Below are positions 35,238-51,107 of a stretch of 64,000 bases of DNA, in pieces. The stretch's first letter is position 1. The number at the start of each line of letters is the position of its first letter. The DNA comes from an uncultured Alphaproteobacteria bacterium (lineage in GTDB: Bacteria; Pseudomonadota; Alphaproteobacteria; HIMB59; GCA-002718135): assembly GCA_902614085.1 (NCBI GenBank), contig CACMJS010000003.1, positions 84,945 through 148,944 on the forward strand. Direction: 5' to 3'. A model generated the notes under the pieces. The model had not been told where the DNA came from. It saw only the letters and a program-made list of their open reading frames with translations, and searched no databases. Position numbers and translations under genes: made by a program.

Positions 35238-36643
35238 TGTTTAATGAAATGTATCAATCTGAGTCAGTTATAAGAAATCATTATAACAATATTAATGATT
35301 GGTTGGATCAAATGACTTCAAAAGTTATTCTTGAAAAGAACGCTGAAGCTGAATCTCATTTTAGAAATATTGGAATTACATTTTCTACAAATAACGAAAC
35401 TGCAAGAGAAAGAATTATTCCGTTTGATTTAATTCCAAGGATATTTACTTATACAGAATGGTTAAGGCTAGAAAGAGGAGTAATCCAAAGAGCTAAAGCA
35501 CTTAATGCGTTTCTTGCTGATATTTATAATCAAGGTGAAATAATAAAAGCCAGTATAATTCCTAAAGAAATTATTTACAAAAAAAAATCTTTTGAACCTT
35601 CAATGTTTGGTTTTTCACCTCCTAGAGACATTTATAGTCCTATAATTGGTATTGATTTAGTTAGAACAGGCCCAAACGAGTATTTTGTTTTGGAAGATAA
35701 TTGTCGAACGCCAAGTGGTGTTTCCTACATGCTAGAAAATAGAGAAATAATGATGCGAATGTTTCCTGATCTATTTCATAACAATAGAGTAACGCCAATA
35801 GATGATTATCCTACAAGACTTTTACAAACTTTGATGAGCTTGGCTCCTATTAAATGCGAAAATCCAGAACCCGTATGCGTATTACTTACACCTGGTCCAT
35901 TGAATAGTGCTTATTACGAACATAGTTTTTTATCAGATCAAATGGGTATTGAAATGGTTGAATCAACCGATCTATTTGTCGAAGGTAAATACCTTTATAT
36001 GAAAACAGTAGATGGCCCAAAGAGAGTAGATGTTGTTTATAGAAGAATAGATGATGATTTTTTAGATCCTCTATGTTTTAATCCTCAATCTGTAATTGGC
36101 ATTCCAGGAATTATGGATGTTTATAGAACCGGAGGTGTCAATATTTGTTCAGCTCCTGGAGCAGGTATAGCCGATGATAAAGCAATTTATATATATGTAC
36201 CTGAGATGATTAAATTTTATCTAGGTGAACAACCAATCTTAGACAACGTTGAAACATGGAATTGTGAAAAGGAACAAGAATTAAAATACGTTTTAGATAA
36301 TATAAATGAACTTGTCGTAAAAGAGGTTGATGGATCTGGAGGATATGGAATGTTAATAGGTCCAAAATCTTCAAAATCTTCTATTGAAGAATTTAAAAAT
36401 AAACTCTCAACAAATCCAAAAGGATATATAGCACAACCTTTACTTGATCTTTCGTTTTCACCAACACTCATCAAAAATCAAGTTGAAGGAAGAAGAGTAG
36501 ATTTAAGACCATTTTGTTTAATAGGGGAACATGCTCAATTAAGTTCTGGAGGCCTAACAAGAGTAGCAATGAATGAAGGTTCGTTTGTCGTCAATTCTAG
36601 CCAAGGAGGCGGTGTTAAAGACACATGGGTTTTAGCTGAATGA
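35237..36643 (+). CDS. circularly permuted type-2 ATP-grasp protein
   Basis: About 470 aa with a pattern typical of the CP_ATPgrasp_2/DUF404-407 family (IPFDLIPRI, VLEDNCRTPSGVSYMLENR, YRRIDDDFLDP, NAPG.GIADDKA, VVKEVDGSGGYGM). GAGG lies 11 nt upstream of the ATG. Confidence 0.8.
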   Translation: MFNEMYQSESVIRNHYNNINDWLDQMTSKVILEKNAEAESHFRNIGITFSTNNETARERIIPFDLIPRIFTYTEWLRLERGVIQRAKALNAFLADIYNQGEIIKASIIPKEIIYKKKSFEPSMFGFSPPRDIYSPIIGIDLVRTGPNEYFVLEDNCRTPSGVSYMLENREIMMRMFPDLFHNNRVTPIDDYPTRLLQTLMSLAPIKCENPEPVCVLLTPGPLNSAYYEHSFLSDQMGIEMVESTDLFVEGKYLYMKTVDGPKRVDVVYRRIDDDFLDPLCFNPQSVIGIPGIMDVYRTGGVNICSAPGAGIADDKAIYIYVPEMIKFYLGEQPILDNVETWNCEKEQELKYVLDNINELVVKEVDGSGGYGMLIGPKSSKSSIEEFKNKLSTNPKGYIAQPLLDLSFSPTLIKNQVEGRRVDLRPFCLIGEHAQLSSGGLTRVAMNEGSFVVNSSQGGGVKDTWVLAE

Positions 36644-36652
36644 GGTATAAAA

Positions 36653-37588
36653 ATGTTAAGTAGAACAGCAGAATATCTATATTGGATAAGTCGTTATATG
36701 GAAAGAGCCGAAACAACTGCGAGGCTTTTGGACGTTGGTTATAGAATGTCTCTTTTCCCAAATCCTAGTGGTTATAATAATGAATGGGAATCAGTGTTAT
36801 CTGCTGCCGGAGCAATAGAAGGATATAAAAATAAATATAATACAATTGAACAAAGAAATGTTGAAGATTATCTATTTTTCGATGAAAGTAATCCTTCTTC
36901 TGTCTATAATTGTATTCTTAATGCTCGAAATAACGCATTAGTAGTTAGAACTTCCTTCACCCCTGAGTCTTGGTTAGCAATTAATAAAACTTATCAAGAG
37001 ATATTAAACTTAAAAGAAAAAAAATTTACTAAATCTGATTTACCTGACCTTACTGAATGGACCATAGAGCAAGTAAACTTATTTAGAGGATCGTTAAGTT
37101 CTTTGCTTAGAAATGATGGTTATAATTTTCTTTTTCTTGGATTATTTATTGAGAGGGCAGATAACTCAGCAAGATTATTAGATGTAAAGTACTTTGTTTT
37201 ATTACCTAAACCTCAATATGTAGGCGGTAATATTGATAATATGCAATGGAGTATATTGTTACGTTCTTTATCATCATTTAGAGCTTTTCGATGGGCATAC
37301 GATGGCAATATTACCGCAACTAAAATTGCTGATTTTTTAGTTTTAAATAATAACTGCCCTAGATCTTTAAGTTTTTGTATTCAGAATATTGTTAAACATT
37401 TAAATAATCTAACATGTAGTCCAGAAAAAGTTGGAAGAATTTATAATAATTTAAAAGATCTAAATTCTAAAATTCAAGAAGAAAAAATAGAAACAATTGT
37501 TGAATATGGTCTTCATCAATTCGTAACACAATTTATTAGAAAAATATCTAGTGTTGATAATGAAATACATAAGGAGTTTTTTAATTAA
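36653..37588 (+). CDS. alpha-E domain protein (DUF403 family)
   Basis: N-terminus MLSRTAEYLYWISRYMERAE and an internal repeat GLFIERADNSARLLDV, characteristic of alpha-E proteins that partner with cpATP-grasp enzymes. Confidence 0.8.
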   Translation: MLSRTAEYLYWISRYMERAETTARLLDVGYRMSLFPNPSGYNNEWESVLSAAGAIEGYKNKYNTIEQRNVEDYLFFDESNPSSVYNCILNARNNALVVRTSFTPESWLAINKTYQEILNLKEKKFTKSDLPDLTEWTIEQVNLFRGSLSSLLRNDGYNFLFLGLFIERADNSARLLDVKYFVLLPKPQYVGGNIDNMQWSILLRSLSSFRAFRWAYDGNITATKIADFLVLNNNCPRSLSFCIQNIVKHLNNLTCSPEKVGRIYNNLKDLNSKIQEEKIETIVEYGLHQFVTQFIRKISSVDNEIHKEFFN

Positions 37589-37589
37589 T

Positions 37590-38429
37590 ATGGAACTTAT
37601 CATTGAACACACAACTAAGTATGAATATAAAAATCCAGTTTCAGGATTAATTCAAACCACTAAATTACATCCCTCAGAATACAATGGTCTAAAAATTCTA
37701 GAATGGAATGTACATAATGATTCTGCAAAAAAATCAAAAATTTATCAGGATGGTGAGGCTAATAATATTCAAAGTTTTACAAATAAAAACAAGGTTAAAA
37801 AAATACAATTTACAGTTCTTGGAAAAGTAGAGACATTTGATACAAAAGGAATTTATCAGAGTGCTTCTGATAAAATCGACCCATTAGTTTACTTAAGAGA
37901 ATCAAATTTAACAAAAGCAAATGCTGATATAAAAAATTTAGCTATTGAAGCTAAAAATGGTTTTAATGAAAATGAAAATTTAGAAACATCTCATAATCTT
38001 ATGAATTTAGTAGCTGATAAAATTGAATACAAGCCATTAACTACAAATAATCAAACAACAGCAATTGAAGCATTTATACAGAAAAAAGGAGTCTGCCAGG
38101 ACCAAGCACATATTATGATTGCTGCTGCAAAAACTCTAGGAATTCCTGCTAGATACGTAAATGGTTATATGCACAACAATTCTCATTCTTCAGAATTTCA
38201 ATCTACACATGCGTGGGCTGAATTTTATATAAATGATTTAGGCTGGGTGGGATTTGACCCCACAAACAAGTGCAGTCCTGATGAAAGATATGTACGTGTT
38301 TCTTGTGGGCTTGATGCAAGTTATGCATCACCTATTAAAGGTGTTTTTTATGGAAATATTAATAATGATTCTTTGATAGAAAACCTAGATATTCATGTAC
38401 AAACATTGGAAAATAATTCTCAACAATAA
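37590..38429 (+). CDS. transglutaminase-like cysteine peptidase-fold protein
   Basis: Catalytic-core pattern GVCQDQAHIMIAAAKTLGIPARYVNGY ... HAWAEFY ... GWVGFDPTN (Cys-His-Asp). I chose ATG 37590 with AAGGAG 14 nt upstream rather than the overlapping upstream start at 37551. Confidence 0.85.
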   Translation: MELIIEHTTKYEYKNPVSGLIQTTKLHPSEYNGLKILEWNVHNDSAKKSKIYQDGEANNIQSFTNKNKVKKIQFTVLGKVETFDTKGIYQSASDKIDPLVYLRESNLTKANADIKNLAIEAKNGFNENENLETSHNLMNLVADKIEYKPLTTNNQTTAIEAFIQKKGVCQDQAHIMIAAAKTLGIPARYVNGYMHNNSHSSEFQSTHAWAEFYINDLGWVGFDPTNKCSPDERYVRVSCGLDASYASPIKGVFYGNINNDSLIENLDIHVQTLENNSQQ

Positions 38430-38484: not shown

Positions 38485-38847
38485 ATGTTTCAAAATAAAA
38501 AACAACTTCAGTATTTATGGATTTTTAAACCTGAACTTAAAGATATTGCAAAAAGAATTGCAGAAGATCATACAAAATGGATGAAGGAAACACATACAAA
38601 GGAAGGTGATAAAGCACTCCTAATGTTAAATTGGTCTATAGGCCCTGAATTTAAAGATGGAAATAAAACAGGCAATATGTCTCTAATCTTAACAGAGGTT
38701 TATGAAAATCAAGCAGGAATAGATGATCATTTTGAGCAAGCACAAAACAATGGTGCAACTTTTAGAGATGATTTTAATGATTTTGAAAGCAAATGTGAAA
38801 ATTCAGTAAAAATTAATAGTTCGGATATTATCCATTCAATGTGGTAA
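38485..38847 (+). CDS. hypothetical protein (120 aa), possibly dimeric alpha/beta-barrel-like
   Basis: Strong SD (AAAGGAGG) 5 nt upstream. No firm motif; the fold guess is weak. Confidence 0.45.
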   Translation: MFQNKKQLQYLWIFKPELKDIAKRIAEDHTKWMKETHTKEGDKALLMLNWSIGPEFKDGNKTGNMSLILTEVYENQAGIDDHFEQAQNNGATFRDDFNDFESKCENSVKINSSDIIHSMW

Positions 38848-38958
38848 ATAATATTTTCAAACTTTAATTTATTTTTAAATAGATTTAAATAATCTTATTG
38901 TAATATTCAAGCTACATATCTAAGTTAGATACAATATTTAATTGAATTTATAGCTATT

Positions 38959-39354
38959 ATGGAAATTGAAAAAATTTTTAAAAATTTAATTTTAGCAGAC
39001 TTTATTGTTATAATTTTAATGGTTATATCATCTATGTATCAACCGTCTGAAATTGCCAATCTTTATGAAAATTTAAATGATGGATTATTATCTAATTTTG
39101 AAAATTTTACCCGAATAGTATCGATTAGTTTATTTTTTTTATATCTATTAACTTTGAATCTACTTTATCGATTTATTTCTTATGGAAAATCACTGTATTT
39201 ATTTTTAGTAGTAGCTGGCATAGTTCTAAATTATTTTAGTGGTTCTGTTATTTATACTGCCTTTAGTGGTATGCTTGATCAAATTGGTGGATTAATTAGT
39301 GGAGCAATTTTGATTCTTTTATATTTTTCTCCAATTAAAGATAATTTTAAATAA
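38959..39354 (+). CDS. hypothetical membrane protein (about 4 TM)
   Basis: Four hydrophobic segments. Confidence 0.45.
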   Translation: MEIEKIFKNLILADFIVIILMVISSMYQPSEIANLYENLNDGLLSNFENFTRIVSISLFFLYLLTLNLLYRFISYGKSLYLFLVVAGIVLNYFSGSVIYTAFSGMLDQIGGLISGAILILLYFSPIKDNFK

Positions 39355-39472
39355 AAAATAACTTAGTTTTCTGCAATGAAATCAATATTTATGTATTTTT
39401 TATTAAAATTTAGTTAAAATATATAAATAGGTACGGTCAAAACCCTTGTAAAAAAAAGACCATAAATTTGTT

Positions 39473-39865
39473 ATGGTAAGAACATTAGCTAAATTTATAA
39501 TTGGGTTATTAAGCTTATGGGCAGTAGTATTTATAATTGCAGAGATTATGGGTGTAACTATATATTTTCCTTTCACTATAGTTGAAAAACAAGAAATACC
39601 ATATCATAGAATTACTTCAGTCAGATTAGCTGTCTTTCTTACTTTTGCTTACTTTGGATTTAGATATCTTTTTCTTCAATCAGATAAACTTTATCCTATT
39701 CAGTTTTTAGAAATTTATATTAAATCATTTACAATTTGTTGTTTATTTGTTTTTTATACTAGTCAAGTTGAATTTAGAGAATACTATTTTGTTTTTTTCT
39801 TGTTTATAGTTTCATTAATTTTACATTTTGCATCAAGAAAAAAGATAAGAAGTTATTTTAATTAA
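39473..39865 (+). CDS. hypothetical membrane protein (about 4 TM)
   Basis: Four hydrophobic segments. Confidence 0.45.
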   Translation: MVRTLAKFIIGLLSLWAVVFIIAEIMGVTIYFPFTIVEKQEIPYHRITSVRLAVFLTFAYFGFRYLFLQSDKLYPIQFLEIYIKSFTICCLFVFYTSQVEFREYYFVFFLFIVSLILHFASRKKIRSYFN

Positions 39866-39867
39866 AA

Positions 39868-39889
39868 CAAGCGGCTATTACACCGCTTG
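39868..39889. terminator. GC-rich hairpin between convergent genes (likely bidirectional terminator)
   Basis: CAAGCGG-CTATTACA-CCGCTTG forms a 7-bp stem in an otherwise AT-rich spacer. A T-run follows on the minus strand (TTTTAATT). Confidence 0.55.
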
Positions 39890-39899
39890 CAAATTTATA

Positions 39900-40331
39900 T
39901 TAATAAGCCTCAAACATCGTTCTAAGGATAATTAAAATAAGTCCAACTAATGGAAACATAACTCCTCTAATGTTAGGGGTAATGCCGTAGTTATTTACAA
40001 GATTAAAATATCTAACAACAGAGCTAATTAAAGCTATTGCCATAAGCATAAACAAAAATGAATACCAGAATTTATATTGTACTACATTTTCTTCATAGGT
40101 GTTTCCAGTAACATCAAATGTTAACAATATAGACATTAATAACATTGTTAAAAAAACTGCACCTAAAGGACCTCTAAATACCAATTTTGGTTCCTCATTA
40201 GAAAATCCTAATTCATTAAAAAATTTGTCATTAAAATAAAACTGATAAATAATAAATAAATTAAAAAGCATGAATAAAACATGGAATGTAAACGCCATTG
40301 TACCACCAGCTTCAAGAATATATTCAGCCAT
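39900..40331 (-). CDS. hypothetical membrane protein (about 4 TM)
   Basis: Hydrophobic segments. I chose the ATG at 40331, preceded by AAGGAG, over the upstream ATG at 40361. Confidence 0.45.
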   Translation of the reverse strand: MAEYILEAGGTMAFTFHVLFMLFNLFIIYQFYFNDKFFNELGFSNEEPKLVFRGPLGAVFLTMLLMSILLTFDVTGNTYEENVVQYKFWYSFLFMLMAIALISSVVRYFNLVNNYGITPNIRGVMFPLVGLILIILRTMFEAY

Positions 40332-40405
40332 AAAAGTCTCCTTTATAAAAATAATTATCAAATTATTAATGATTCTTTATAAAAAAATTATTAAAGTAAT
40401 TTAAA

Positions 40406-41260
40406 ATGAAAAATATATTAGTTACAGGTGGTTCGGGTAAAGCGGGAAGGGCAACAATAAATTTACTATTAAAAAATAACTATAATGTGTTTAATGTAGA
40501 TTTAGCTAATCATTCAGAATTGGATGTCCCTTTTTCAAAAGTTAATTTAGAAAATTTTGGCGATGCAATGGAGTCTGTATCTGAAATAGATGATCGTATT
40601 AATGGAATTGATGCAATTATTCATCAAGCAGCTATTCCTGCTCCAGGTTTAGAAACCAATCATAAAACTTTTAGAATGAATACTCTAAGTACTTACAATA
40701 TTTTTCAGGCAGCTAAAGTTTTAAAAATTAATAATATTGTATGGGCTTCAAGTGAAACTGTTCTTGGCTTACCTTTTGACACATATCCGCCATATGTCCC
40801 AGTTGATGAAGAATATTATCCTCGTCCTGAATCTAGCTATTCCTTATCAAAGGTAATGGGTGAAGAAATGGCTAGACAATATTGCAGGAGAAATCCTGAA
40901 ATGAAAATATTTGGACTTCGCTACTCAAATATAATGGAAGAGAAAGATTACAAACAATTTCAATCATTCCAAAAAGATCCATTTTTAAGAAAATGGAATT
41001 TTTGGGGATATATTGACGCTAGAGATGTAGCTCAAGCTTGTTTATTAGCAATGGAAAGTAAATTAAAAGGTGCTGAGAATTTTATTATAGCTGCAGATGA
41101 TACTGTTATGGAAGAAGATAATAAATCTCTTCTTGATAAAGTATTTCCAAATATTCAAATTAAAGGTGAAGTTGGAAAAAATAAAACATTGCTAAGTAAT
41201 GATAAAGCTAAAAAAATTTTAGGATTTAAACCAAAATATTCTTGGAAAAATATTAATTAA
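40406..41260 (+). CDS. NAD-dependent epimerase/dehydratase (extended SDR) family protein
   Basis: N-terminus ILVTGGSGKAGRA, with an SS...YSLSK catalytic Tyr-Lys region. Confidence 0.75.
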   Translation: MKNILVTGGSGKAGRATINLLLKNNYNVFNVDLANHSELDVPFSKVNLENFGDAMESVSEIDDRINGIDAIIHQAAIPAPGLETNHKTFRMNTLSTYNIFQAAKVLKINNIVWASSETVLGLPFDTYPPYVPVDEEYYPRPESSYSLSKVMGEEMARQYCRRNPEMKIFGLRYSNIMEEKDYKQFQSFQKDPFLRKWNFWGYIDARDVAQACLLAMESKLKGAENFIIAADDTVMEEDNKSLLDKVFPNIQIKGEVGKNKTLLSNDKAKKILGFKPKYSWKNIN

Positions 41261-42219
41261 ATTTCCAAACTCATTAAACCATTTTTGTCAAAACTAATTG
41301 GAATTGGATTTGATATTTCTCCAATAAAATTACCTTTTTGATCATCATGCAAAAAAGCCATAAAGAAAAATTTATTATCTTTTTCAATAACTCTACCTGC
41401 ATAAAGTTCTATTTCAGAACTTGATGTAAAGTAGGGGCCTGGTGCCAGATTCCATGGGCCTTCAAATTTATCTGCAATTAAATAATGCGTTCCTCGCTTA
41501 TTCGGCCCATTATAATTTTTTTTGAATTCATTAGACCAGTCTTCTGGATGATTGCAAAATAAACAATACCATTTATTTTTAACTTTAAATATTTGAGGAA
41601 CTTCTAACTGACTAAATAATCCTCCAAATAAAGGTTGAATAGATTTCCATTCATAAAGGTTATTTGACTCAGCCATTCCAATTACCCCACACTGATAAGG
41701 ATCATTATGGATTGATGCTCTAGCTGTGTATGCCATTATAAATTTATTTTCATAAGGATGCTTCATTACCCATGGATCACGCATAGCACGATCTTTCCAA
41801 TAATTATCACTCTCTAACTCTTGGTAAATATTTTTATCTAAATCGAGAGCTAATCCATTTCCATATCTATTAAAAGAATAGGGTGTGCCACCTACTGCAT
41901 GACCAATTCTTTGTTTACTGCCATTTTCCTTTTTATTTCTACCTGTATAAAAGTAGTGCCAGTTATTTTTATTTTTAATTATTGATCCTGTCCAAGTTGT
42001 ATAATCATCAAAATTTTCATTTTTAGAAGGAGTAAAAACTGTACCATGATATTCCCAATTAATTAAATCTTTTGAGGTAGCTAATCCATGAGTAACATTA
42101 TTATGCCTTAGATCAGGATCTTTTAGAGATTTATCAGCTTGAAGAAAATAACAATACCAAATCTCATTATCATTACTTATCCAAAAATCCCAAAGCCATT
42201 TTTCTTTATGTTTTATCAA
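41257..42219 (-). CDS. five-bladed beta-propeller glycoside hydrolase-like protein (clan GH-J, GH32/GH68-like)
   Basis: N-terminal WLWDFW (nucleophile-Asp block), TWTGS, RDPWV (RDP motif) and LEVPQ (acid/base Glu block). No signal peptide. Confidence 0.55.
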   Translation of the reverse strand: MIKHKEKWLWDFWISNDNEIWYCYFLQADKSLKDPDLRHNNVTHGLATSKDLINWEYHGTVFTPSKNENFDDYTTWTGSIIKNKNNWHYFYTGRNKKENGSKQRIGHAVGGTPYSFNRYGNGLALDLDKNIYQELESDNYWKDRAMRDPWVMKHPYENKFIMAYTARASIHNDPYQCGVIGMAESNNLYEWKSIQPLFGGLFSQLEVPQIFKVKNKWYCLFCNHPEDWSNEFKKNYNGPNKRGTHYLIADKFEGPWNLAPGPYFTSSSEIELYAGRVIEKDNKFFFMAFLHDDQKGNFIGEISNPIPISFDKNGLMSLEI

Positions 42220-42220
42220 T

Positions 42221-43846
42221 TTAATTAAAAGAGATTTCTGCTAAAGAAGCAGTATCTTCCAAGTATAAATATAATTTATTATTGTAATAAATCATATCTC
42301 TTATTCTTTCACCAATATCTAATTTTTTTACAATATTAAAATTATTTTCCTTATTATTATAATTATATTCAAAAAAATATAGAGAATGGGCTTTTAAAGA
42401 TGCTACAACATATTGATTCTCATTATTTAATCCAATAATTTGTGAAATACCAATTGATGGATTGAAATATTTTAATGGTTCTATAAATCCATGTTCAGAA
42501 TGTGATTTATGTAGTGGATATTTTTCATATTTATTTTTATTTTCAGGAGCATTTTTACCTCCATAATGTTCTCCATAAGATGAAATGGCCCAACCAAAAT
42601 TTTGTACGGAATTATAATCAAGTTTTATCACATTAATCTCATCCCCACCTTGTGGTCCATGTTCTGCCTCTAAAAGAAAATTTTCATCCTCATTATAAAA
42701 AAGACCTTGGGGATTTCTATGACCCATACTGATAACTTCATAATCATTATTTTTCTTATTAATTTTCAGAACCTTACCAAAAATACTATTTTCACTCTGT
42801 GCTCGATAGCGACTTCTAAAATCACCTATGGAAAATAATACTATTTCATTATTTAAATTAATAATTCTACCACCAGATTGATGAGCATTGTATTCATCAT
42901 CTATATTATCATATTCATTTACACATTCTTCAGATGTAAACAAAGTTGTAAAATGAATATAAACATAATTCATTTTTCCTGAGAGCAAACTAGTATTCCA
43001 ACAATTTTCTTTAACTTCTTTTGTATAGGAGACGTAAATATCTCCATCAAATATTTCCACATCTTTTATTGAATACCAACCTCCTTTTAACCATGAGTAT
43101 TTTGGATCATCGAAGTGTCTTGATTTTTTAAATTGAGTAACATCAATAAAATTATTAAGATTATTTTGAATCTGTTTAAGAGATATTCCAAATTTTGGTT
43201 TATTTAATGGTTTTTTTGAGTAACCAATAATACCACTAGATGAAACTAGAATGAGATTATCTTTATGAATATCTAAATAACCACTTCCAGGAGTTGTATT
43301 CGTTATTCCATACAGCAAAGTATCTCCAATCGGAGTATAAAATTTTACACTTAAATTATCATCGTAAATATTAAAACGTCCATCGTAACCATAATTTAAA
43401 TCTTTTCTTTGTTCTTTAAACATCATATCAAATTCAGAGGGGTCTATTTTTTTGAAAATTTGATTAAAAGTTATTTGATTTTGTTCTAATTTTTTTAAAT
43501 TATTATTAAGATTATTATTTAAATTATTAAATGCATTAACAAATATTTGCTTATCTCCACTTATAAATATTTTTTCTTTATTAATCTTTTGTATATTTTC
43601 CTCTAGATCATTTATATTTTTTTCATCTACTTGAATTGTAGCAGTTAATTTTTGTCTATTTATATTTTCTAATTCTTCAATTTTCTTTTCTAAATTTCCA
43701 ATATTTTTAAATGGCACTATATAGTCAAAAGTAAATTCTCTAAGATTTTTTCCAAAATTATTTGTAACAAAAGAAAAATCTAATAATAAATTTAGTGAAA
43801 GAACGAATATTAAAATAATAATGGATATATTTTTAAAATTAAACAT
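42221..43846 (-). CDS. membrane-anchored glucose/sorbosone dehydrogenase (GSDH, PQQ-dependent-type) beta-propeller protein, paralog B
   Basis: SMGHRNPQGL, EAEHGPQGGDEINVI and NFGWA motifs. N-terminal TM helix followed by a coiled-coil-like segment. I chose ATG 43846 (TAG-A-ATG junction with paralog A) over 43909. Confidence 0.7.
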   Translation of the reverse strand: MFNFKNISIIILIFVLSLNLLLDFSFVTNNFGKNLREFTFDYIVPFKNIGNLEKKIEELENINRQKLTATIQVDEKNINDLEENIQKINKEKIFISGDKQIFVNAFNNLNNNLNNNLKKLEQNQITFNQIFKKIDPSEFDMMFKEQRKDLNYGYDGRFNIYDDNLSVKFYTPIGDTLLYGITNTTPGSGYLDIHKDNLILVSSSGIIGYSKKPLNKPKFGISLKQIQNNLNNFIDVTQFKKSRHFDDPKYSWLKGGWYSIKDVEIFDGDIYVSYTKEVKENCWNTSLLSGKMNYVYIHFTTLFTSEECVNEYDNIDDEYNAHQSGGRIINLNNEIVLFSIGDFRSRYRAQSENSIFGKVLKINKKNNDYEVISMGHRNPQGLFYNEDENFLLEAEHGPQGGDEINVIKLDYNSVQNFGWAISSYGEHYGGKNAPENKNKYEKYPLHKSHSEHGFIEPLKYFNPSIGISQIIGLNNENQYVVASLKAHSLYFFEYNYNNKENNFNIVKKLDIGERIRDMIYYNNKLYLYLEDTASLAEISFN

Positions 43847-43847
43847 T

Positions 43848-45395
43848 CTAGTTAATAGATACTTCTGCGATAGATGCCGTATCTTCCAAATATAAGTATA
43901 ATTTTTCATTATAATAAATCATATCTCTTATTCTTTCACCAATATGAACTCTTTCAATTTTTATATTATCACTATTACCATTGCTCACTTTATTTGGAGT
44001 TGTGATTTTTTCATCATTGTAGTCATATTCAAATAAATAGAGAGATTCATCCTTCATTGATGCTACTACGTAACTATTATTTTTATCTAAACCAACTATT
44101 TGAGAAATGCCAATAGATGGATTAAAGTAAATGAGAGGTTCAATAAATTTATATTCAGAGTGAGATTTATGTAGTGGGTATTTTACATACTTTTTTTTGT
44201 TATAGGGTGCATTTTTTCCTCCATAATGCTCTCCATATGAAGATATAGCCCATCCATAATTAGGTATTTTATTATTATTTAATTCAATTAAATTTATTTC
44301 ATCACCACCTTCAGGACCATGCTCCGCCTCTAAGAGGAAATTATTTTTTTTATTGTAATATAATCCTTGAGGGTTTCTATGCCCCATACTTACAACTTTG
44401 TAATCTTTTGTTGTTTTATTAATTTCAATTATTTTACTAAATATACTATCTTCTTTTTGCGCTCTAAATCTACTTCTAAAATCACCAGTAGAAAAAAATA
44501 GATTTTGATCATCTACATTAATTATTCTTCCTCCAGATTGATGTGCATTAAACTCACCGTCAATGTTATCATAAAAATGAACACATTCATCTGACGTGAA
44601 AAGATTTTCAAAAATAATAAGCTTTAAATTCATTTTTCCATGTAATAAACTTGTATTCCAGCAATTTTCTTTCACTTCTCTTGTATAAGATACGTAAATT
44701 TGATCTTTATAAATATTTACATCTTTAATTGAGAACCAACCACCTTCTAACCAATCAAAATCATGTATTCTTGATTTTTTAAACTGTTCTTTACCTATGA
44801 ATTTACTAATATTTGTTTTAATTTGTTTAAAATATAAATCATTTGTATTATTTTTAATTTGGTTAGAATAAGCTAATACACCACTTGCTGAAATTAAAAT
44901 TAAATTATTATTATATGTTTCTAAATATCCACTTGCTGGGAATTGATTAGCTATACCATATAATAATATATTTTTTTGAGGGCTATAGATTCTTGTCTTG
45001 ATTTTACTATTTGAAAAACTGTGCTCAGCATTAATTGCATATTCTAAATGCTTATTATTTTTTTTGATATCCAAATCAAATTCGTAAGGATCAAATTGCT
45101 CAAGTATCTTTGCTAATATTTGAGAGTGATATGCAGTTTCATTACTATCATCATATAAATCCTTGAATCCTTTCTCAAATAATTCTTTTTGTGCTTCAAA
45201 TTTATTACGTTCTTTTTTGAGATCTTTTATTTGAGTTTTTAAGTTTGTAGTATTTTTATGAAATAAAATATACTTATGTACAAATTCATTTAAATTATTG
45301 TTAATTTGCTTATTTATATACGTGAAATCAAATAAAAAATTGAATGAAAGAAAAGCAAATATCAGAAATACAATAAAATTTCTAAAAATTTTCAT
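43848..45395 (-). CDS. membrane-anchored glucose/sorbosone dehydrogenase (GSDH, PQQ-dependent-type) beta-propeller protein, paralog A
   Basis: SMGHRNPQGL, EAEHGPEGGDEINLI and NYGWA motifs. N-terminal TM helix and coiled-coil-like segment. Long identical peptide blocks are shared with paralog B. Confidence 0.7.
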   Translation of the reverse strand: MKIFRNFIVFLIFAFLSFNFLFDFTYINKQINNNLNEFVHKYILFHKNTTNLKTQIKDLKKERNKFEAQKELFEKGFKDLYDDSNETAYHSQILAKILEQFDPYEFDLDIKKNNKHLEYAINAEHSFSNSKIKTRIYSPQKNILLYGIANQFPASGYLETYNNNLILISASGVLAYSNQIKNNTNDLYFKQIKTNISKFIGKEQFKKSRIHDFDWLEGGWFSIKDVNIYKDQIYVSYTREVKENCWNTSLLHGKMNLKLIIFENLFTSDECVHFYDNIDGEFNAHQSGGRIINVDDQNLFFSTGDFRSRFRAQKEDSIFSKIIEINKTTKDYKVVSMGHRNPQGLYYNKKNNFLLEAEHGPEGGDEINLIELNNNKIPNYGWAISSYGEHYGGKNAPYNKKKYVKYPLHKSHSEYKFIEPLIYFNPSIGISQIVGLDKNNSYVVASMKDESLYLFEYDYNDEKITTPNKVSNGNSDNIKIERVHIGERIRDMIYYNEKLYLYLEDTASIAEVSIN

Positions 45396-45437
45396 TAAAA
45401 AAAAATTATCAAAAAAGAAAAATAATTACAATATGTT

Positions 45438-46361
45438 TTAGTATTTAACTTTGTTTTTTAATTTTTTTGAATAAAGATAATTTGATATATTTTGTGAGCT
45501 AATCTTAGCCATTCTCAATCTTGTTTCAAAAGTAGCACTTCCATTATGAGGGGATAACAAAACATTATTTAACTTTAAAAATTTACTATTAATTTTTGGC
45601 TCCATTCCAAACACATCCAATGCAGCACCACTTATTAAATTTTTATTCAAAGCATCTAATAAATGAACTTCATTAATTACAGATCCTCTTGAAACATTTA
45701 CTATTATGGAGGAGGGTTTCATTAGTTTTAATATACTATTGTTTATTAAGTGTCTTGTCTCACTTCCACCAATACAAGTAATAACCATTACATCAATTAA
45801 ACTAGCCATATCTTTTAAATTTTTAAAATATTTAAAATTCAAATTTTTATTATTTGGGCCATAATAAACAATTTTCATAGAAAGTGATTTTACTCGTTTA
45901 GAAAATGCCTTACCTATCTCACCCATACCTACTATTCCTACTGTTTTGTTAGTAAGACTAGTTGTCAAATCAAAAGGTTTGTTATTCCATTTTTTTTTCA
46001 AAATAAAATCATGAGCTTGATTTATTTTTCTTGATAAAGCTATCATGAGGCCAAGTGCTAAATCAGCAACATCATTAGTAAGAACTTTAGGTGTATTTGT
46101 TATAACTATTTTATTATTTTTACAATAATTCAGATCTACACCATCATACCCAACACCAAATACTGAAACTATTTTTAGATTTTTAAATTTTTTAAGAAAT
46201 TTTTTATTAGTTTTAAAACCACCAGTGACAACAATTCCTTGATATTTGCTAAAATCAATTTTGCTCTTTAATTGCCATAAGCAATCAACAATAAAATTTT
46301 TTTTATAAACAGGTATAAAATCTTTGATAAGAATATCAGTAATTAAAATATTTAATTTCAT
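45438..46361 (-). CDS. D-isomer-specific 2-hydroxyacid dehydrogenase (glyoxylate/hydroxypyruvate reductase-like)
   Basis: NAD-binding motif VGIVGMGEIGKAF. Catalytic RG..I/E/H pattern (NVSRGSVINE...SPHNGSAT). Confidence 0.8.
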   Translation of the reverse strand: MKLNILITDILIKDFIPVYKKNFIVDCLWQLKSKIDFSKYQGIVVTGGFKTNKKFLKKFKNLKIVSVFGVGYDGVDLNYCKNNKIVITNTPKVLTNDVADLALGLMIALSRKINQAHDFILKKKWNNKPFDLTTSLTNKTVGIVGMGEIGKAFSKRVKSLSMKIVYYGPNNKNLNFKYFKNLKDMASLIDVMVITCIGGSETRHLINNSILKLMKPSSIIVNVSRGSVINEVHLLDALNKNLISGAALDVFGMEPKINSKFLKLNNVLLSPHNGSATFETRLRMAKISSQNISNYLYSKKLKNKVKY

Positions 46362-46373
46362 ATAAGAAATAAA

Positions 46374-47402
46374 TTAATCTTTACTTGAAGTAGCCCAAAG
46401 ATTAATTTTTTCTTCTCTTGCATATTTATCTATCTCTTTTAATTCCGATTTACTAAAATATAAATTATTTTGACTATCCAGACATTCATCTAATTGCTTC
46501 ACAGTTCTTGCTCCAATTAAAGCAGATGTCATAGTTTCGTGACGTAACACCCATGATAAAGCCATTTGTGGTAAAGATTGACCTCTTTTTTTTGCTATTT
46601 TTGTCAATTCTTTAATTTTCACTAAGTAGCTTTTAGTAATCATTTTTTTATCAAGAGATGAATTATCTGAAATTCTAGATACTTTAGGAATAGTTTTCAA
46701 ATATTTTCCAGATAGCATACCCTGAGCTAATGGAGAAAAAGCAATACAACCAATACCTAATTTTTTGAGTGTATCTAAAAGATCTTTTTCAATCCATCTA
46801 TTCAGCATTGAGTAAGATGGCTGATGTATTAAACAATTAATTCCTCTTTGTTTTAAAAGTTTATTAATTATTATTGTTTGTTTAGAACTATATGAAGAAA
46901 TTCCCACGTACAGTGCTTTTCCTTGATTAACAGCTTGTGCCAATGCATCGGCAGTTTCTTCTAATGGAGTTAAGGGATCAAAGCGATGAGAATAGAAAAT
47001 GTCAACATATTCTATCTTCATTCTTTTTAAGCTTTGATCAAGACTTGCTGTCAAATATTTTTTTGAACCCCATTCGCCATAAGGTCCATCCCACATATGA
47101 TAACCAGCTTTACTTGATATGATCATTTCATCTCTATATTTTTTAAAATCAGAATTCATAACTTTACCAAAATTTTCTTCTGCAGATCCAGCAGGTGGGC
47201 CGTAATTATTTGCGAGATCAAAATGTGTAATACCTCTGTCAAAAGCTCTAAAGAGCATCTTCTTTGCTTCTTTTGTCATAGATTTTTTCCCACCAAAATT
47301 ATGCCAAAGACCTAAGGTAATAGGGGGTAGCAAAAGACCGCTTTTGCCAGATCTTCTGTATTCTAATTTTTTATATCTTTTATTATTTGCTTTATAGGCC
47401 AT
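46374..47402 (-). CDS. aldo/keto reductase (YghZ/L-glyceraldehyde-3-phosphate reductase-like)
   Basis: N-terminus YRRSGKSGLLLPPITLGLWHNFG, FDLANNYG, and AKR length. Confidence 0.8.
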   Translation of the reverse strand: MAYKANNKRYKKLEYRRSGKSGLLLPPITLGLWHNFGGKKSMTKEAKKMLFRAFDRGITHFDLANNYGPPAGSAEENFGKVMNSDFKKYRDEMIISSKAGYHMWDGPYGEWGSKKYLTASLDQSLKRMKIEYVDIFYSHRFDPLTPLEETADALAQAVNQGKALYVGISSYSSKQTIIINKLLKQRGINCLIHQPSYSMLNRWIEKDLLDTLKKLGIGCIAFSPLAQGMLSGKYLKTIPKVSRISDNSSLDKKMITKSYLVKIKELTKIAKKRGQSLPQMALSWVLRHETMTSALIGARTVKQLDECLDSQNNLYFSKSELKEIDKYAREEKINLWATSSKD

Positions 47403-47474
47403 TAATACTTTTTAAGTATATTTAGCTTTTACATCAAGTAATTATTTAAACTTAAATAATATAAAAACTTTTAA

Positions 47475-49250
47475 TTAATTTTGTTGTTTTTGTTTATTCC
47501 ACATTAATGCGTATAATCCATCTTTACTTAGTAGGCTTGAATGATCTCCTTCTTCAACAATATTTCCTTTATCTATAACAATTATTTTATCTGCATTTGA
47601 CACAGTTGAGAGTCTATGAGCTATAATTAATGTGGTTTTACCTTGAGATATTTTGTTTAAATTTTTATTTATTTCTTTTTCTGTATTAGTGTCTAATGCT
47701 GATGTTGCTTCATCAAAAAAGAGGATTGATGGATTTTTTAAAACAGCTCTTGCTATGGCAACTCTTTGTTTTTCTCCTCCAGATAATTTAAGACCTCTCT
47801 CACCCACAATAGTATTGTATTTATCAGGAATACTTTCAATAAAATCATGGATACCAGCAATTTTTGCTGCATTTATTACATCTTCTTCACTTGAGTTTAT
47901 TAAACCATAAGAAATATTATAAAAAATTGTGTCATTGAATAAAACTGTATCCTGGGGGACGACACCTATCATTTGTCTTAATGAGTTTTGTTTGTATTTT
48001 TTTATATTTTTCTTATTAATTAATATTTCTCCACTATCTGGATCATAAAAACGAAACAATAATTTACTTATTGTTGATTTCCCTGCACCAGTTGGTCCAA
48101 CTATCGCTAAAGATTTACCTTCTGGTATACTAAAGGATATATTTTTGATAATTGTTCTTTTATTTTCATATCCAAAAAAAATATTTTTAAAAATTATTTC
48201 TGCATTATTGTTATTTAAATGTTCACTTCCACTATCATCAATATTATTTTTTTCTTTTAAAAGATTAAACATATTTTCCATATCAACTAACGATTGTCTT
48301 ATTTCGCGATAAATAGTTCCTAGAAAATTTAATGGCTGATAGAGTTGAAGCATATAAGCATTTATAACTACAAAACCGCCAACAGTTATAGTTTTATTCT
48401 GAATTCCAAATACTGTTAAAACAAGCATAAGAGTTATTCCACTCATTATTACAAATGTTTGGCTAATATTTAAAAGAGATAAGGATGTTCTGTTCTTGTT
48501 TGCTGCGTTTTCATATTTTTCTAGTGACTCATCTAATCTTTTAAACTCATGATTTTCGTTATTAAAATATTTAACAGTTTCAAAATTAAGAAGACTATCA
48601 ATCATTTTAGTACTTGCAGCATTATCTGCTAAATTCATATCTTTTCTAAATTGCAATCTCCATTGAGTAATTGTAAATGTTAAAATAACATAGATAGAAA
48701 TAGTAATAAAAGTTATGATTGCGTATTCAAATCCGTATAAGGTAAGTAAAATAAATATAACAAGAACTAGCTCAATAAATGTTGGAACTACATTAAATAG
48801 AACATAGCGTAATAAAAAATCTATTCCTTTTGTCCCCCTATCAATAAATCTATTAAGACCTCCAGTCTGTCTTGAAAGATGAAAATCTAAAGACAAAAAA
48901 TGTAAATGTTTGAAAACTTTTAGACTTACTCTTCTAATAGCATTTTGAGATACTTTAGAAAAAAGAGCGTCTCTGATTTCATTAAAAGCAAATGAAGCTA
49001 TTCTTACAATTCCATAAGATATAATAATAGCAATCGGAACATATAATAATAAATTTATACCACTACTTAAATCATTAAGTGAATCAACAGCATTTCCAAG
49101 GATTAAAGGTGTATAAACGCTAGCTACTTTTGCTAATATCATACTCAACCCAGCTAAAACCACTCTTATTCTAAGATCTTTTCTGCTTTTGGGCCATAAA
49201 TAAGGGAGTAATAATTTTGATGTACTAAAGAAAGTAGAATCTTTTTTCAT
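47475..49250 (-). CDS. ABC exporter, fused permease/ATPase, Atm1/HMT1-type
   Basis: N-terminus LLPYLWPK...RIRV, six TM helices, Walker A GPTGAGKST, signature LSGGEKQR and Walker B ILFFDEATS. Confidence 0.85.
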   Translation of the reverse strand: MKKDSTFFSTSKLLLPYLWPKSRKDLRIRVVLAGLSMILAKVASVYTPLILGNAVDSLNDLSSGINLLLYVPIAIIISYGIVRIASFAFNEIRDALFSKVSQNAIRRVSLKVFKHLHFLSLDFHLSRQTGGLNRFIDRGTKGIDFLLRYVLFNVVPTFIELVLVIFILLTLYGFEYAIITFITISIYVILTFTITQWRLQFRKDMNLADNAASTKMIDSLLNFETVKYFNNENHEFKRLDESLEKYENAANKNRTSLSLLNISQTFVIMSGITLMLVLTVFGIQNKTITVGGFVVINAYMLQLYQPLNFLGTIYREIRQSLVDMENMFNLLKEKNNIDDSGSEHLNNNNAEIIFKNIFFGYENKRTIIKNISFSIPEGKSLAIVGPTGAGKSTISKLLFRFYDPDSGEILINKKNIKKYKQNSLRQMIGVVPQDTVLFNDTIFYNISYGLINSSEEDVINAAKIAGIHDFIESIPDKYNTIVGERGLKLSGGEKQRVAIARAVLKNPSILFFDEATSALDTNTEKEINKNLNKISQGKTTLIIAHRLSTVSNADKIIVIDKGNIVEEGDHSSLLSKDGLYALMWNKQKQQN

Positions 49251-49423
49251 ATCATATTTTTAAAATTAAAAAATTATCCTTATAAAAATTGATTAAATAA
49301 GTCTTGTAAAATTTATACATAGTTCACATTAATCAATAATTAGCAATGTTTGTAATATTTTAAAGTAAATGTTGCTTTCTGTATTTGATAATATTTTTAT
49401 ATAATAATATATAATATTAATAA

Positions 49424-49603
49424 ATGACTGACTTACAATGGTATGCCTATCTTGGAGGATTTGTAGCATTCGCAATCGGATGTTACGTATATTATCTCTC
49501 TAGAAATAAAAATTTAGATGATCAACAAGTTAAAAATAGAAAAAGAGTTATGAATTTTTTTTTAATTATAGCTTTGGTTTGTGTTGGTTATTCGTGGCTG
49601 TAA
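49424..49603 (+). CDS. candidate small two-TM membrane protein (59 aa)
   Basis: Hand-translated ORF MTDLQWYAYLGGFVAFAIGCYVYYLSRNK...NFFLIIALVCVGYSWL. It has two hydrophobic helices and falls just under the ORF-track cutoff. Confidence 0.35.
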   Translation: MTDLQWYAYLGGFVAFAIGCYVYYLSRNKNLDDQQVKNRKRVMNFFLIIALVCVGYSWL

Positions 49604-49619
49604 ACTTAAGAGATAAAAT

Positions 49620-51107
49620 TTGAAATATTATCTTGCAATTGATGCTGGGACTTCAGTAATAAAGACTGTAATTTTTAATACAAATTTCAAACAAATAAAT
49701 TCTCATAGTGTAAAAAATCCAGTCGTAACTGATAAATTTGGTAAATCTGAAATTGAAATGGAAAAATTTTGGCTTCTTACAGCAAAGTGTATTAAACTTT
49801 TAATAAAAAAATCTAAAATTCAGTCACAATCAATTGTTGGTTTAGGCATAACTGGAAATATGGTCGGATTTTGGTCTATCAATAATATAAATAAACCAGT
49901 AAGAAATGCAATTTTGTGGAATGACACAAGAAGCCAAAAAGTTTTCACTAATAAAAAAATATTTGATCAAATTTATAAAATTACAGGCTCTATCGCGCAA
50001 TATGGGTGCACTATACCTATTCTTAAGTGGATGACTAAATTTGAAAAAGAAAATTTAAAAAAAATTAAATATATATTAACTTGTAAAGATTGGTTAAGAT
50101 TTAAATTAACAGGGAATATAAATAATGATGAAACAGAAGTTTCAGTATATCCAGGAGATATAAAAAATAAAAAATTATCAAAAAAAATTTTCAAAATTTT
50201 TAATTTAAGTACTAAATATTTTAAATTGTTCCCAGAAATAAAAAAATCAAATCAATTAGGTGGATACATTACTAAAAGTGCATCAAAATTAACTAATTTA
50301 AAAATTGGTACACCTGTTATTATAGGATGTGGTGACGTAATAGCTTCCATTTTAGGAGCTGGAGGAATTAATAATAACAAAAAAATCAGTATAATTGGAA
50401 CTACATGTCATAATATTATAGTTAAAAATAATTCAAAAATATCTAAAGACGGCTCAGGGTTATTTTTTGCTTCATTAAATGATACATGGTTAGAGACTAA
50501 AATAAACGTTGCAGGAACAACTAATATTGATTGGGTTATTGATAATTTTTATAAAAATTCTAAAAAGTATTCCGATAAAATTAACATAATTAAGAATTTT
50601 GAAAAAAAATATTTAACTTTTAATTATCCAGAAAACTCATTGGTATTTCTTCCTTATATAAATTATGGAGGATCTATATCACCATTTGTAAATTTAAATT
50701 CTAAAGCTGAAATTTTTGGAATTTTACCTCATCATAATAATTTTGATATTATGACTGCTTGTTATGAAGGTTTAGCATTATCTATTAAAGATTGTTATGC
50801 GAATAAAATTAAAACTAAAGACAGTCTTTATCTAGCAGGAGGTGCATCAAAAAGCAAAGTTTTACCTCAACTAATTTCAAATGCTTTAAATACTAAAGTT
50901 AAAATTTTAAATAATTCCGAACTAGGTGCATTAGGCATTTCATATCTAATTCATAGTTATTTACATAAAAAAGATTTAAAAAATTTAATTAACGATCATC
51001 AAAATATTGGTCATATTTACACACCTCAAAGAAAACATTCCAAATATCTTAACAATAAATATCAAAAATATAAAAAATTAAGAGAGTCATTGAATAATAT
51101 ATGGTGA
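49620..51107 (+). CDS. FGGY-family carbohydrate kinase
   Basis: N-terminus YYLAIDAGTSVIKTVIF, WND.R, and C-terminal GGASKS. TTG start. Confidence 0.8.
   Translation: MKYYLAIDAGTSVIKTVIFNTNFKQINSHSVKNPVVTDKFGKSEIEMEKFWLLTAKCIKLLIKKSKIQSQSIVGLGITGNMVGFWSINNINKPVRNAILWNDTRSQKVFTNKKIFDQIYKITGSIAQYGCTIPILKWMTKFEKENLKKIKYILTCKDWLRFKLTGNINNDETEVSVYPGDIKNKKLSKKIFKIFNLSTKYFKLFPEIKKSNQLGGYITKSASKLTNLKIGTPVIIGCGDVIASILGAGGINNNKKISIIGTTCHNIIVKNNSKISKDGSGLFFASLNDTWLETKINVAGTTNIDWVIDNFYKNSKKYSDKINIIKNFEKKYLTFNYPENSLVFLPYINYGGSISPFVNLNSKAEIFGILPHHNNFDIMTACYEGLALSIKDCYANKIKTKDSLYLAGGASKSKVLPQLISNALNTKVKILNNSELGALGISYLIHSYLHKKDLKNLINDHQNIGHIYTPQRKHSKYLNNKYQKYKKLRESLNNIW

Follow-up and report, generated by a model that had tools for sequence, protein, structure and literature searches.

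The proteins closest to those described here are soluble sugar dehydrogenases that depend on pyrroloquinoline quinone (PQQ) and share a six-bladed β-propeller: the aldose sugar dehydrogenases (Asd), such as E. coli Asd/YliI, which are periplasmic and about 350 residues long, and the soluble glucose dehydrogenase (sGDH) of Acinetobacter calcoaceticus, whose active-site loops are long and whose signal peptide is cleaved off. In sGDH, His144 has been proposed as the general base, and the carbonyls of PQQ are flanked by Arg228 and Asn229 (PMC6881810); Arg408 binds PQQ, and calcium in the active site is bound by two main-chain carbonyls (PMC6881789). The residue roles used below were drawn from these two papers on family AA12. 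We analysed a 64,000-nucleotide stretch of DNA from an uncultured alphaproteobacterium (contig CACMJS010000003.1; referred to as the window), in which two adjacent minus-strand genes, A and B, encode proteins of the GSDH family with such a propeller behind an N-terminal hydrophobic anchor, followed directly by the gene of a GH68-like protein. Our favoured reading, held with slightly better than even confidence, is that A and B are membrane-tethered, periplasm-facing, PQQ/Ca2+-dependent aldose dehydrogenases that use scavenged PQQ and form part of a carbohydrate cassette.

The window has a G+C content of about 26% and is about 93% coding. Because its genes are 85–99% identical to those of single-cell genomes labelled Pelagibacteraceae, the genome is of the SAR11 type (Pelagibacteraceae).

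Two anchored GSDH-type proteins

Paralog A (515 residues; 43848..45395, minus strand) and paralog B (541 residues; 42221..43846, minus strand) scored 108.9 and 112.8 bits, respectively, with the Pfam GSDH model PF07995 (cut-off 25 bits; E about 1e-31 for both). For B, the mechanical open reading frame (ORF) reaches an ATG at 43909 (562 residues); stand-alone orthologues of B begin with MFN(F/L)KN, which supports a start at 43846 rather than at 43909. Pairwise alignment with BLASTP gave 51% identity (E = 0), distributed unevenly: 66% in the propeller and 28% in the linker that precedes it. All ten of the long identical blocks quoted in the original prediction were found in both proteins, and its assignment of both to the GSDH-type PQQ dehydrogenases holds, as the profile match, the fold and the active-site motifs agree.

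The β-propeller catalytic domain spans residues ~141–515 of A (43851..44975, minus strand; Pfam GSDH match at residues 231–494, profile alignment to sGDH/Asd structures) and residues ~149–541 of B (42224..43402, minus strand). In the AlphaFold2 model of B (mean pLDDT 76), strands begin at residue 150 and the propeller mostly has pLDDT values of 80–97. The best 17 matches of this model in the PDB, obtained with Foldseek, were all of the Asd/sGDH type (E 9e-17 to 1e-11), the best being 7CDY, 2G8S (E. coli Asd), 3A9G, 3DAS, 1C9U (sGDH) and 2ISM; the target-normalised TM-score was ~0.70 to Asd-type chains (0.70 to 2G8S).

The active site was compared by aligning a profile of 52 family members with sGDH and Asd structures. 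The HQSGGR motif aligned with His144 of sGDH, which corresponds to His285 in A and His322 in B (AHQSGGR); GHRNPQG aligned with Arg228, Asn229 and Gln231, EHGP with the main-chain calcium site Gly247-Pro248, and ERIRD with Arg406 and Arg408. Gln231 and Arg406 are presumably PQQ-contact residues too. Since counterparts of His144, Arg228/Asn229, the calcium site and Arg406/Arg408 are all present, A and B carry, as judged from this alignment, a complete PQQ/Ca signature. Near relatives keep the catalytic histidine in 90% of cases or more, and two cysteines (Cys245 and Cys271 in A) are invariant across the family. The model of the sGDH subfamily, TIGR03606 (non_repeat_PQQ), was not reached by either protein (28.3 and 31.2 bits for A and B versus a cut-off of 434.55); by profile and fold, A and B are not members of that subfamily and lie closer to the Asd type.

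The original prediction held that both proteins begin with an uncleaved-looking transmembrane helix. Anchors were sought with a 19-residue Kyte-Doolittle window (threshold >1.6), and anchor and signal peptide were told apart by hydropathy and by reading the sequence. A single hydrophobic segment of 16–19 residues was found in each GSDH protein, at the N-terminus, with Lys/Arg before it and Asp at its C-terminal end. In A it covers residues ~6–24 (45324..45380, minus strand; Kyte-Doolittle 2.12), with K2 and R5 ahead and D23 at the end; in B it covers residues ~5–24 (43775..43834, minus strand), with a value of 2.58 over IIILIFVLSLNLLLDFSFV and an AlphaFold helix at residues 2–21. Neither a small-x-small cleavage motif nor a lipobox cysteine could be read in the N-termini of A and B, in agreement with the earlier proposal. 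In a first search, 114 of the 118 family members that carry the motifs had this segment. We infer a type II (N-in, C-out) signal anchor that would place the propeller in the periplasm; a periplasmic domain fits the two invariant cysteines, which are consistent with a periplasmic disulfide.

Between anchor and propeller lies a helical linker, which is K/E/N-rich in A (residues ~25–140; 44976..45323, minus strand) and, in B (residues ~25–148; 43403..43774, minus strand), has a 29-residue insertion relative to A and a low-complexity stretch NNLNNNLNNNL. AlphaFold placed helices in the B linker at residues 25–28, 33–42, 44–111, 117–133 and 136–146, with pLDDT values of 35–47 over residues 80–123, and this model supports a helical spacer between anchor and propeller. 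The extension had been described as K/E/N-rich, heptad-like, not conserved between the paralogs and forming a coiled-coil stalk. Its poor conservation is evident from the identities given above, and a helical linker of 115–125 residues stands; the heptad periodicity is marginal. The contrast between a/d and other positions was 0.65 in both linkers, a value reached by 3.4% of shuffled sequences for A (p = 0.03) and by 10.8% for B (p = 0.11). With this weak signal, pLDDT values below 50 in the long helix and family linkers of anything between 73 and 166 residues (chiefly in two classes, around 125 and around 155), a coiled-coil stalk is not established.

Orthologues of A in three genomes (L001, L002 and L004) are 83–94% identical to it. 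The dN/dS ratio was 0.10–0.13 for A as a whole and ~0.12 for B, with 0.07–0.10 in the propeller and 0.15–0.20 over residues 1–140 of A (anchor plus linker); the N-terminal region thus changes at roughly double the rate of the propeller. Purifying selection maintains both copies and also acts on the GH68-like gene (dN/dS 0.2–0.3). A and B differ chiefly in linker length and in propeller loops, and their substrate ranges probably differ.

A full-library search returned 3962 relatives at E ≤1e-3, and at E ≤1e-30 at least 412 clusters at 50% identity, from SAR11, Prochlorococcus and other AT-rich marine picoplankton. The best 127 full-length representatives show next to no variation in the anchor (117 of 127), in the two cysteines or in the PQQ/Ca residues; the PQQ-contact and calcium-site residues are each conserved in 122–128 of 129 clade sequences. 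Distant members in Pelagibacteraceae adjoin thyX (L011, L012 and L017); the region has hflK/hflC and mrp at one end, and at the other end L011 and L012 have ppdK and glyS. In another locus (L003, 6980–9506), a Zn-alcohol-dehydrogenase and a 501-residue anchored GSDH of type C lie between fatty-acid desaturase and ion-channel genes; in the window the desaturase and ion-channel genes are 6 nt apart (63201–63208) with no GSDH between them, so that here a GSDH cassette behaves as an insertion/deletion at a second site near the urease cluster.

The GH68-like enzyme and the conserved cassette

The gene that follows B (41257..42219, minus strand) encodes a compact, apparently cytoplasmic enzyme of clan GH-J with 320 residues. 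It scored 60.4 bits with Glyco_hydro_32N (cut-off 22.1 bits), while the GH68 model PF02435 was not reported at E ≤0.1 and relatives show only faint matches to it; of the two halves of the predicted Glyco_hydro_32/68 assignment, only the first was thus reached by a Pfam model. The AlphaFold model (pLDDT 95.4) is an all-β five-bladed propeller, whose top 38 fold matches were GH68 or GH32 enzymes with GH68 first. The top match was the Halalkalicoccus GH68 inulosucrase (7BJC/7BJ4, query-normalised TM-score 0.81), and 7BJ4 was also the best profile-to-PDB match (E 5e-15). The motifs W-x-W-D11 (WLWDFW), TTWTGS, R147-D148-P149 and E206-V-P (LEVPQ) are invariant or at least 90% conserved in 46 homologues, and the catalytic triad Asp11/Asp148/Glu206 is intact and aligns with the motifs of 7BJ4. 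A Kyte-Doolittle scan detected no hydrophobic segment, and there is no signal peptide; the GH32 C-terminal β-sandwich PF08244 was not matched, the protein stopping at residue 320, within or just past the propeller. The earlier description as a cytoplasmic-looking, five-bladed GH-J-like protein is well founded, and by fold and motifs the protein is best described as GH68-like.

Proteins of this family (~320–335 residues) are common in marine and soil Alphaproteobacteria and are labelled levansucrase, GH68 or beta-fructofuranosidase in the source databases. In Paracoccus the gene follows a LacI regulator, which is itself adjoined by an MFS_2 sugar symporter; in marine contigs with a GH68-like gene at 55–61% identity a sugar ABC importer of the CUT1 type is adjacent, and the set at 61% identity includes a LacI regulator and, in three contigs (L102–L104), a 2-hydroxyacid dehydrogenase. 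This is the context of an intracellular catabolic glycosidase; the importer and LacI neighbours point to a cytoplasmic hydrolase rather than a secreted fructan synthase.

Upstream of A are a D-2-hydroxyacid dehydrogenase family gene (45438..46361, minus strand; 307 residues, Pfam 2-Hacid_dh_C, E 3e-49) and, 12 nt before it, the first gene of the cassette, an aldo-keto reductase (AKR; 46374..47402, minus strand; 342 residues, Pfam Aldo_ket_red, E 3e-71). The AKR exceeds the cut-off of NCBIfam NF007388, the L-glyceraldehyde-3-phosphate reductase subfamily (469.8 versus 448 bits), and the best NCBIfam models for the 2-hydroxyacid dehydrogenase are glyoxylate/hydroxypyruvate reductase types, all below their cut-offs. 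Downstream, an epimerase/dehydratase of the extended short-chain dehydrogenase/reductase (SDR) type (40406..41260, plus strand; 284 residues, Pfam Epimerase, E 3e-24) converges on the GH68-like gene with a 4-nt overlap of the stops.

The junctions given in the original prediction were read from the sequence as stated: A and B are joined by TAG-A-ATG (43844..43850, minus strand; ...AAC TAG A ATG TTT...), and B and the GH68-like gene by TAA-A-TTG (42217..42223, minus strand; ...AAT TAA A TTG ATA...), from which it follows that the latter gene starts with TTG. A single operon had been concluded from these junctions. The tightly joined genes probably share a transcript and lie in a conserved cassette, which is larger than was proposed, with the AKR and 2-hydroxyacid dehydrogenase genes upstream and the convergent SDR; the spacing itself is not diagnostic, since 1-nt gaps are the norm in this genome (see below). 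A scan for sigma-70 and terminator consensus sequences over 40300–49700 was uninformative (66 promoter-like sites versus 70.8 expected).

Synteny was compared in three genomes (L001, L002 and L004) and six metagenome contigs (L113–L117 and L119), the counts being based on exact-protein look-ups plus one metagenome scan. A GSDH gene lies directly upstream of the GH68-like gene in all ten informative loci (the window, L001, L002, L004, L113–L117 and L119). In the nine loci outside the window the GH68-like protein is 74–98% identical, and the adjacency persists down to 62% GSDH and 74% GH identity. In L001, A is joined to the GH68-like gene by the same 1-nt spacing. Where the sequence extends far enough, the AKR (L001, L002, L004, L117 and L119) and the 2-hydroxyacid dehydrogenase (the same five plus L114 and L115) are found further upstream and the SDR convergent downstream; the SDR adjoins the GH68-like gene, at 86–99% identity, in L001, L002, L004, L113, L114, L116, L118, L120 and L122. 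The genes before the AKR change: an ABC exporter in the window and L001, small ORFs adjoining the urease cluster in L002, and an extra full-length GH32, an AKR and a PhyH gene in L004. The site itself is a strain-variable stretch between the urease cluster (56310–61114) and an ATP-grasp/transglutaminase group (35234–38429). With flanks that vary and a cassette that stays intact, the pattern is that of a five- to six-gene cassette of the flexible genome acting as a unit, as far as gene order can tell.

The two GSDH genes had been described as tandem paralogs. They are indeed adjacent and related, but they belong to different branches, and B is missing from about half of the cassettes. The circumstance that the original prediction itself named as refuting it, a single paralog in related genomes, thus holds in part. 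A is the constant copy in A-bearing cassettes, and B, with its longer linker, is an optional second one, present in four of nine cassettes (window, L002, L004 and L119), absent from L001 and L114–L117, and also found alone elsewhere; L113, cut off upstream, was left out of this count. The sole GSDH is of type A in L001, L114 and L115 and of type E (502 residues, 63% identical to A) in L116 and L117. Identities between types are 63% for A–E, 60% for A–C, 51% for A–B and 66% for B–D. Since A resembles types E and C more than it does B, and B resembles type D more than it does A, we rejected a recent local copying of A as the origin of B; on these identities, B stems from a different branch of a family with several types and is an optional insertion. 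The pattern fits the extensive paralogism reported for the SAR11 flexible genome (PMC11796062).

The surroundings of the cassette showed further features. Flanking proteins of the window are highly similar to those of L001 and L002 (SDR 98–99%, ABC exporter 98%, transglutaminase 96–97% identical), and the cassette proteins are less so (2-hydroxyacid dehydrogenase 85–87%, AKR 90%, GSDH A 91–94%), which suggests quicker evolution or recombination of the cassette. The MsbA/glucan-exporter-like ABC exporter lies at 47475–49250 (minus strand) upstream of the cassette, and its counterpart in L001 is 98% identical; in the metagenome contig L110 a 64%-identical exporter (4952–6739) stands directly after a GH68-like gene, a second recurring neighbour of that gene. 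Divergent from the exporter and cassette, at 49620–54190 (plus strand), are an FGGY kinase gene (best match xylulokinase, below cut-off) and a CUT1-type sugar ABC importer consisting of a substrate-binding protein and two permeases with no adjacent ATPase gene. This set is absent beside the cassette in L002 and L004; the importer could be an uptake system for a cassette substrate. The full-length GH32 just upstream of the cassette in L004 (2963–4426, minus strand; N and C domains, no signal peptide) has EPGDPNA as its nucleophile motif, where WMNDPNG is usual. The space from the transglutaminase gene to the SDR is occupied by four small genes for proteins of 120–153 residues without a Pfam match (38485–40361). 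From their sequences, two or more of the proteins look membrane-embedded, and all four genes are kept in L001 and L004 and three in L002. A defence-system reading was dropped, as PADLOC models gave no match to A, B or the GH68-like protein.

PQQ supply and possible functions

No PQQ-biosynthesis Pfam domain was detected in the 62 window ORFs scanned, as had been noted from the sequence before. A Lactamase_B_2 gene (3580–4332) was considered as PqqB and rejected, because it is part of a row of housekeeping genes (holB-metG-tatD) that lacks PqqC, PqqD and PqqE. E. coli carries PQQ apo-enzymes without making the cofactor. Nor is the absence of pqq genes anomalous for SAR11, because PQQ is routinely supplied to its cultures: a defined SAR11 medium contains 1 nM PQQ as a standard component (PMC13198564).

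In the mechanism that we propose, A and B would be anchored in the inner membrane, with the helical spacer holding the Asd/sGDH-type six-bladed propeller in the periplasm, where it would be loaded with Ca2+ and with PQQ scavenged from seawater. The enzymes would oxidise aldose sugars at C1 to lactones and pass the electrons to the respiratory chain, so that energy might be gained without importing the sugar. The GH68-like protein would act as a cytoplasmic hydrolase of the β-fructofuranosidase type on an imported fructoside, for example sucrose, a candidate because it is a compatible solute of cyanobacteria; the AKR, 2-hydroxyacid dehydrogenase and SDR, all NAD(P) oxidoreductases, would interconvert the resulting sugars or sugar acids. 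The periplasmic and the cytoplasmic reactions might form a single pathway, or share no more than a carbohydrate-themed cassette. Elsewhere in the window (4329–6219, plus strand), a 3-hydroxyisobutyrate/6-phosphogluconate-dehydrogenase-like gene precedes an SMP-30/gluconolactonase-like gene (5266–6219). The latter was considered as a periplasmic lactonase partner; it has no signal peptide, and its product could be a cytoplasmic lactonase acting on imported aldonolactones.

Several findings weigh against this proposal, and they bear on the alternatives as well. Periplasmic dehydrogenases and a cytoplasmic hydrolase need a transport step if they are to share a molecule, and the conserved cassette contains no importer. 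The lack of a conserved transporter equally burdens an oxidise-first route, analogous to 3-keto-glycoside routes, in which the periplasmic PQQ enzyme would oxidise a disaccharide or glycoside that is then imported, cleaved by the GH68-like enzyme and reduced by the AKR, 2-hydroxyacid dehydrogenase and SDR. Such a route would account for one hydrolase and four or five oxidoreductases conserved as a unit, and for the 2-hydroxyacid dehydrogenase beside the GH68-like gene in a LacI/ABC-importer context (L102–L104); Asd/sGDH-type enzymes, moreover, accept disaccharides. We nevertheless regard it as very unlikely, as the only activities known for GH-J enzymes are those of fructosidases or fructosyltransferases on fructosides that are not modified, and sGDH-type chemistry is directed at the anomeric C1 of reducing aldoses, a position that sucrose does not offer.

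Tight junctions are the default in this genome, with gaps of ≤1 nt in 22 of the 46 same-strand neighbour pairs of the window, and outside the lineage of the cassette the two enzyme types are met apart. GSDH proteins of types A (L099), B (L089–L098, 89% identical to window B) and C (L003) occur without a GH68-like gene, and GH68-like genes at ≤61% identity occur without a GSDH (L005–L008 and L102–L112); on this evidence the link between the two is lineage-specific. The gene identities might therefore be right and a functional link missing, a streamlined, densely coding genome having packed unrelated flexible genes into a block inherited within a shallow lineage. The variation among strains of the island between the urease and ATP-grasp/transglutaminase genes would agree with this, as would the gain and loss of GSDH cassettes elsewhere (the type C GSDH with Zn-alcohol-dehydrogenase in L003, absent at 63201/63208). 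However, chance packing does not readily explain an adjacency kept in every informative locus down to 62% GSDH identity despite the switch of the GSDH from type A to type E, a cassette that stays whole while the genes upstream of the AKR change, or the insertion of B between A and the GH68-like gene with the 1-nt junction pattern preserved. We consider the absence of any functional link unlikely, if still a serious contender.

In the wider clade the catalytic histidine is kept in only 68 of 129 sequences, the others having Tyr, Asn, Val or Gln, although a one-column misalignment may account for some of these losses. Some members of the clade may rely on another base or another chemistry, and with His replaced in about half of its members the family does not appear to be uniformly one of classical dehydrogenases. 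It could be argued further that the propellers are not PQQ enzymes in vivo at all, serving as binding proteins or in other chemistry in a host unable to make PQQ; the GSDH fold also occurs in some non-enzymatic proteins, and the window has no pqq genes. A and B themselves, however, keep the histidine and all PQQ/Ca contact motifs under strong constraint (propeller omega 0.07–0.10), and PQQ is provided in SAR11 media (PMC13198564). The apo-enzymes of E. coli count against this reading as well. This explanation is very improbable in our view.

Surface-glycan gene clusters harbour many of the relatives in the clade. GT1/GT4, Wzy_C, carbamoyltransferase, APS kinase and ABC exporter genes are found near the GSDH in L009, an AT3-SGNH acyltransferase in L010 and L017 (next to thyX in the latter), NeuB and an epimerase in L015, a carbamoyltransferase with a faint GDSL-type lipase match in L089–L093, and GT4, Wzx, heparinase II/III and GT1 in Prochlorococcus L100. 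The anchored GSDH proteins might thus modify the cell's own envelope glycans or periplasmic intermediates (lipopolysaccharide, capsule or S-layer) rather than scavenge free sugars, with the stalk setting the distance from the membrane; the discrete classes of linker length, the SDR epimerase/dehydratase of the cassette and the MsbA/PglK-like ABC exporter alongside it in some strains would suit such a role. Yet SAR11 flexible genes are stored mainly in surface-glycan islands (PMC11796062), so that chance co-location is expected, and the core-genome copy between thyX and ppdK has no glycan genes around it (L011 and L012). The cassette, for its part, holds enzymes of the catabolic type (GH, AKR and 2-hydroxyacid dehydrogenase) and no glycosyltransferases. 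A role in envelope modification is in our estimate improbable. So, to a similar degree, is a broader proposal in which the anchored clade would consist of PQQ-dependent enzymes whose targets are glycosides or envelope glycans, reached at a fixed spacing from the inner membrane, combined here with the GH68-like enzyme and the three reductases in an oxidise-first route. We retain PQQ-dependent aldose oxidation at the membrane as our working interpretation of A and B.

Other features of the window are noted for completeness. Five EamA-family transporter genes (11531–12406, 12874–13728, 13721–14575, 17031–17942 and 19798–20688) lie within 9 kb (11531–20688), interspersed with histone-deacetylase-like, PhyH and MFS genes; the array illustrates the paralogism of transporters that has been reported for SAR11. 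A pair of long ORFs that overlap (415 and 613 residues; 20731–23785, plus strand) has no Pfam match and is followed by a GFO/IDH/MocA oxidoreductase gene (23782–24804). An 870-residue protein (24819–27431, minus strand) combines a weak cyclic-nucleotide-binding match (whole-protein E 9e-9, no stretch above threshold) with a C-terminal GDSL-type lipase/acylhydrolase domain, an unusual combination.

Comparison with known systems

Both enzyme families are known, and annotation pipelines name them 'PQQ-dependent sugar dehydrogenase' and 'levansucrase/GH68'. The GH68-like protein has the five-bladed propeller of the Halalkalicoccus jeotgali GH68 inulosucrase (7BJ4/7BJC) and of bacterial GH68 levansucrases, and its W-D nucleophile motif, W-(S/T)-G-S, RDP and catalytic Glu match theirs in the alignment; it differs in its low identity (~19%), its length (320 versus 405–540 residues) and the lack of a signal peptide. 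With GH32 invertases and sucrose-6-phosphate hydrolases it shares the clan and the triad, Glyco_hydro_32N being the sole GH model above cut-off, but the C-terminal β-sandwich is missing and the scrB family model gave only 40 bits against a cut-off of 356.

Literature searches, which were limited, yielded no description of the anchor-plus-spacer architecture of the GSDH clade or of a characterised member of it, none of a GSDH expansion into several types in SAR11 flexible islands, and none of a conserved cassette with a compact GH68-like enzyme. The same searches found nothing specific on SAR11 with PQQ glucose dehydrogenase, and no reports on a Pelagibacter levansucrase, an intracellular GH68 or SAR11 in connection with sucrose and glycoside hydrolases. 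In the current view, SAR11 bacteria possess very few carbohydrate-active enzymes, and what they take up is mainly small molecules. If our interpretation is correct, a strain-variable, energy-yielding, sugar-oxidising trait would be added to this picture, together with a dependence on PQQ from other microbes; were the oxidise-first reading on glycosides or envelope glycans true instead, it would mean that the most abundant cells of the ocean have a carbohydrate pathway not recognised before and depend on PQQ. Knowledge of the substrates of the large anchored GSDH clade would aid the annotation of many marine genomes, including those of Prochlorococcus. As the component families are ordinary, the value lies in physiology and ecology rather than in a new mechanism.

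Among the PQQ enzymes, A and B share the propeller of E. coli Asd/YliI (2G8S), 7CDY, 3A9G, 3DAS and 2ISM (Foldseek E ~1e-15 to 1e-17) and the motifs GGR, GHRNPQG, EHGPxGGDEIN, NYGW and RxRD of the Asd-type enzymes, and, as for E. coli Asd, no pqq genes lie nearby in the window. They are only ~19–20% identical to the Asd type and have, in addition, the uncleaved-looking anchor, the helical linker, the pair of invariant cysteines and an extended loop (SSYGEHYGGKNAP...YPLHKSHS). The PQQ- and calcium-binding residues of A. calcoaceticus sGDH (1C9U/1CQ1) are matched in A and B, with one difference: the Gln of the 'QGP' calcium site of sGDH is His, as in Asd. The membrane-bound glucose dehydrogenase (mGDH) Gcd, a PQQ enzyme that supplies the respiratory chain on the periplasmic side, is unrelated in fold, with an eight-bladed propeller and a five-helix membrane domain that binds ubiquinone, whereas A and B have one anchor helix and no evident quinone site; the likeness to mGDH lies in the proposed physiology, a membrane-attached, periplasm-facing oxidation of sugars without uptake.

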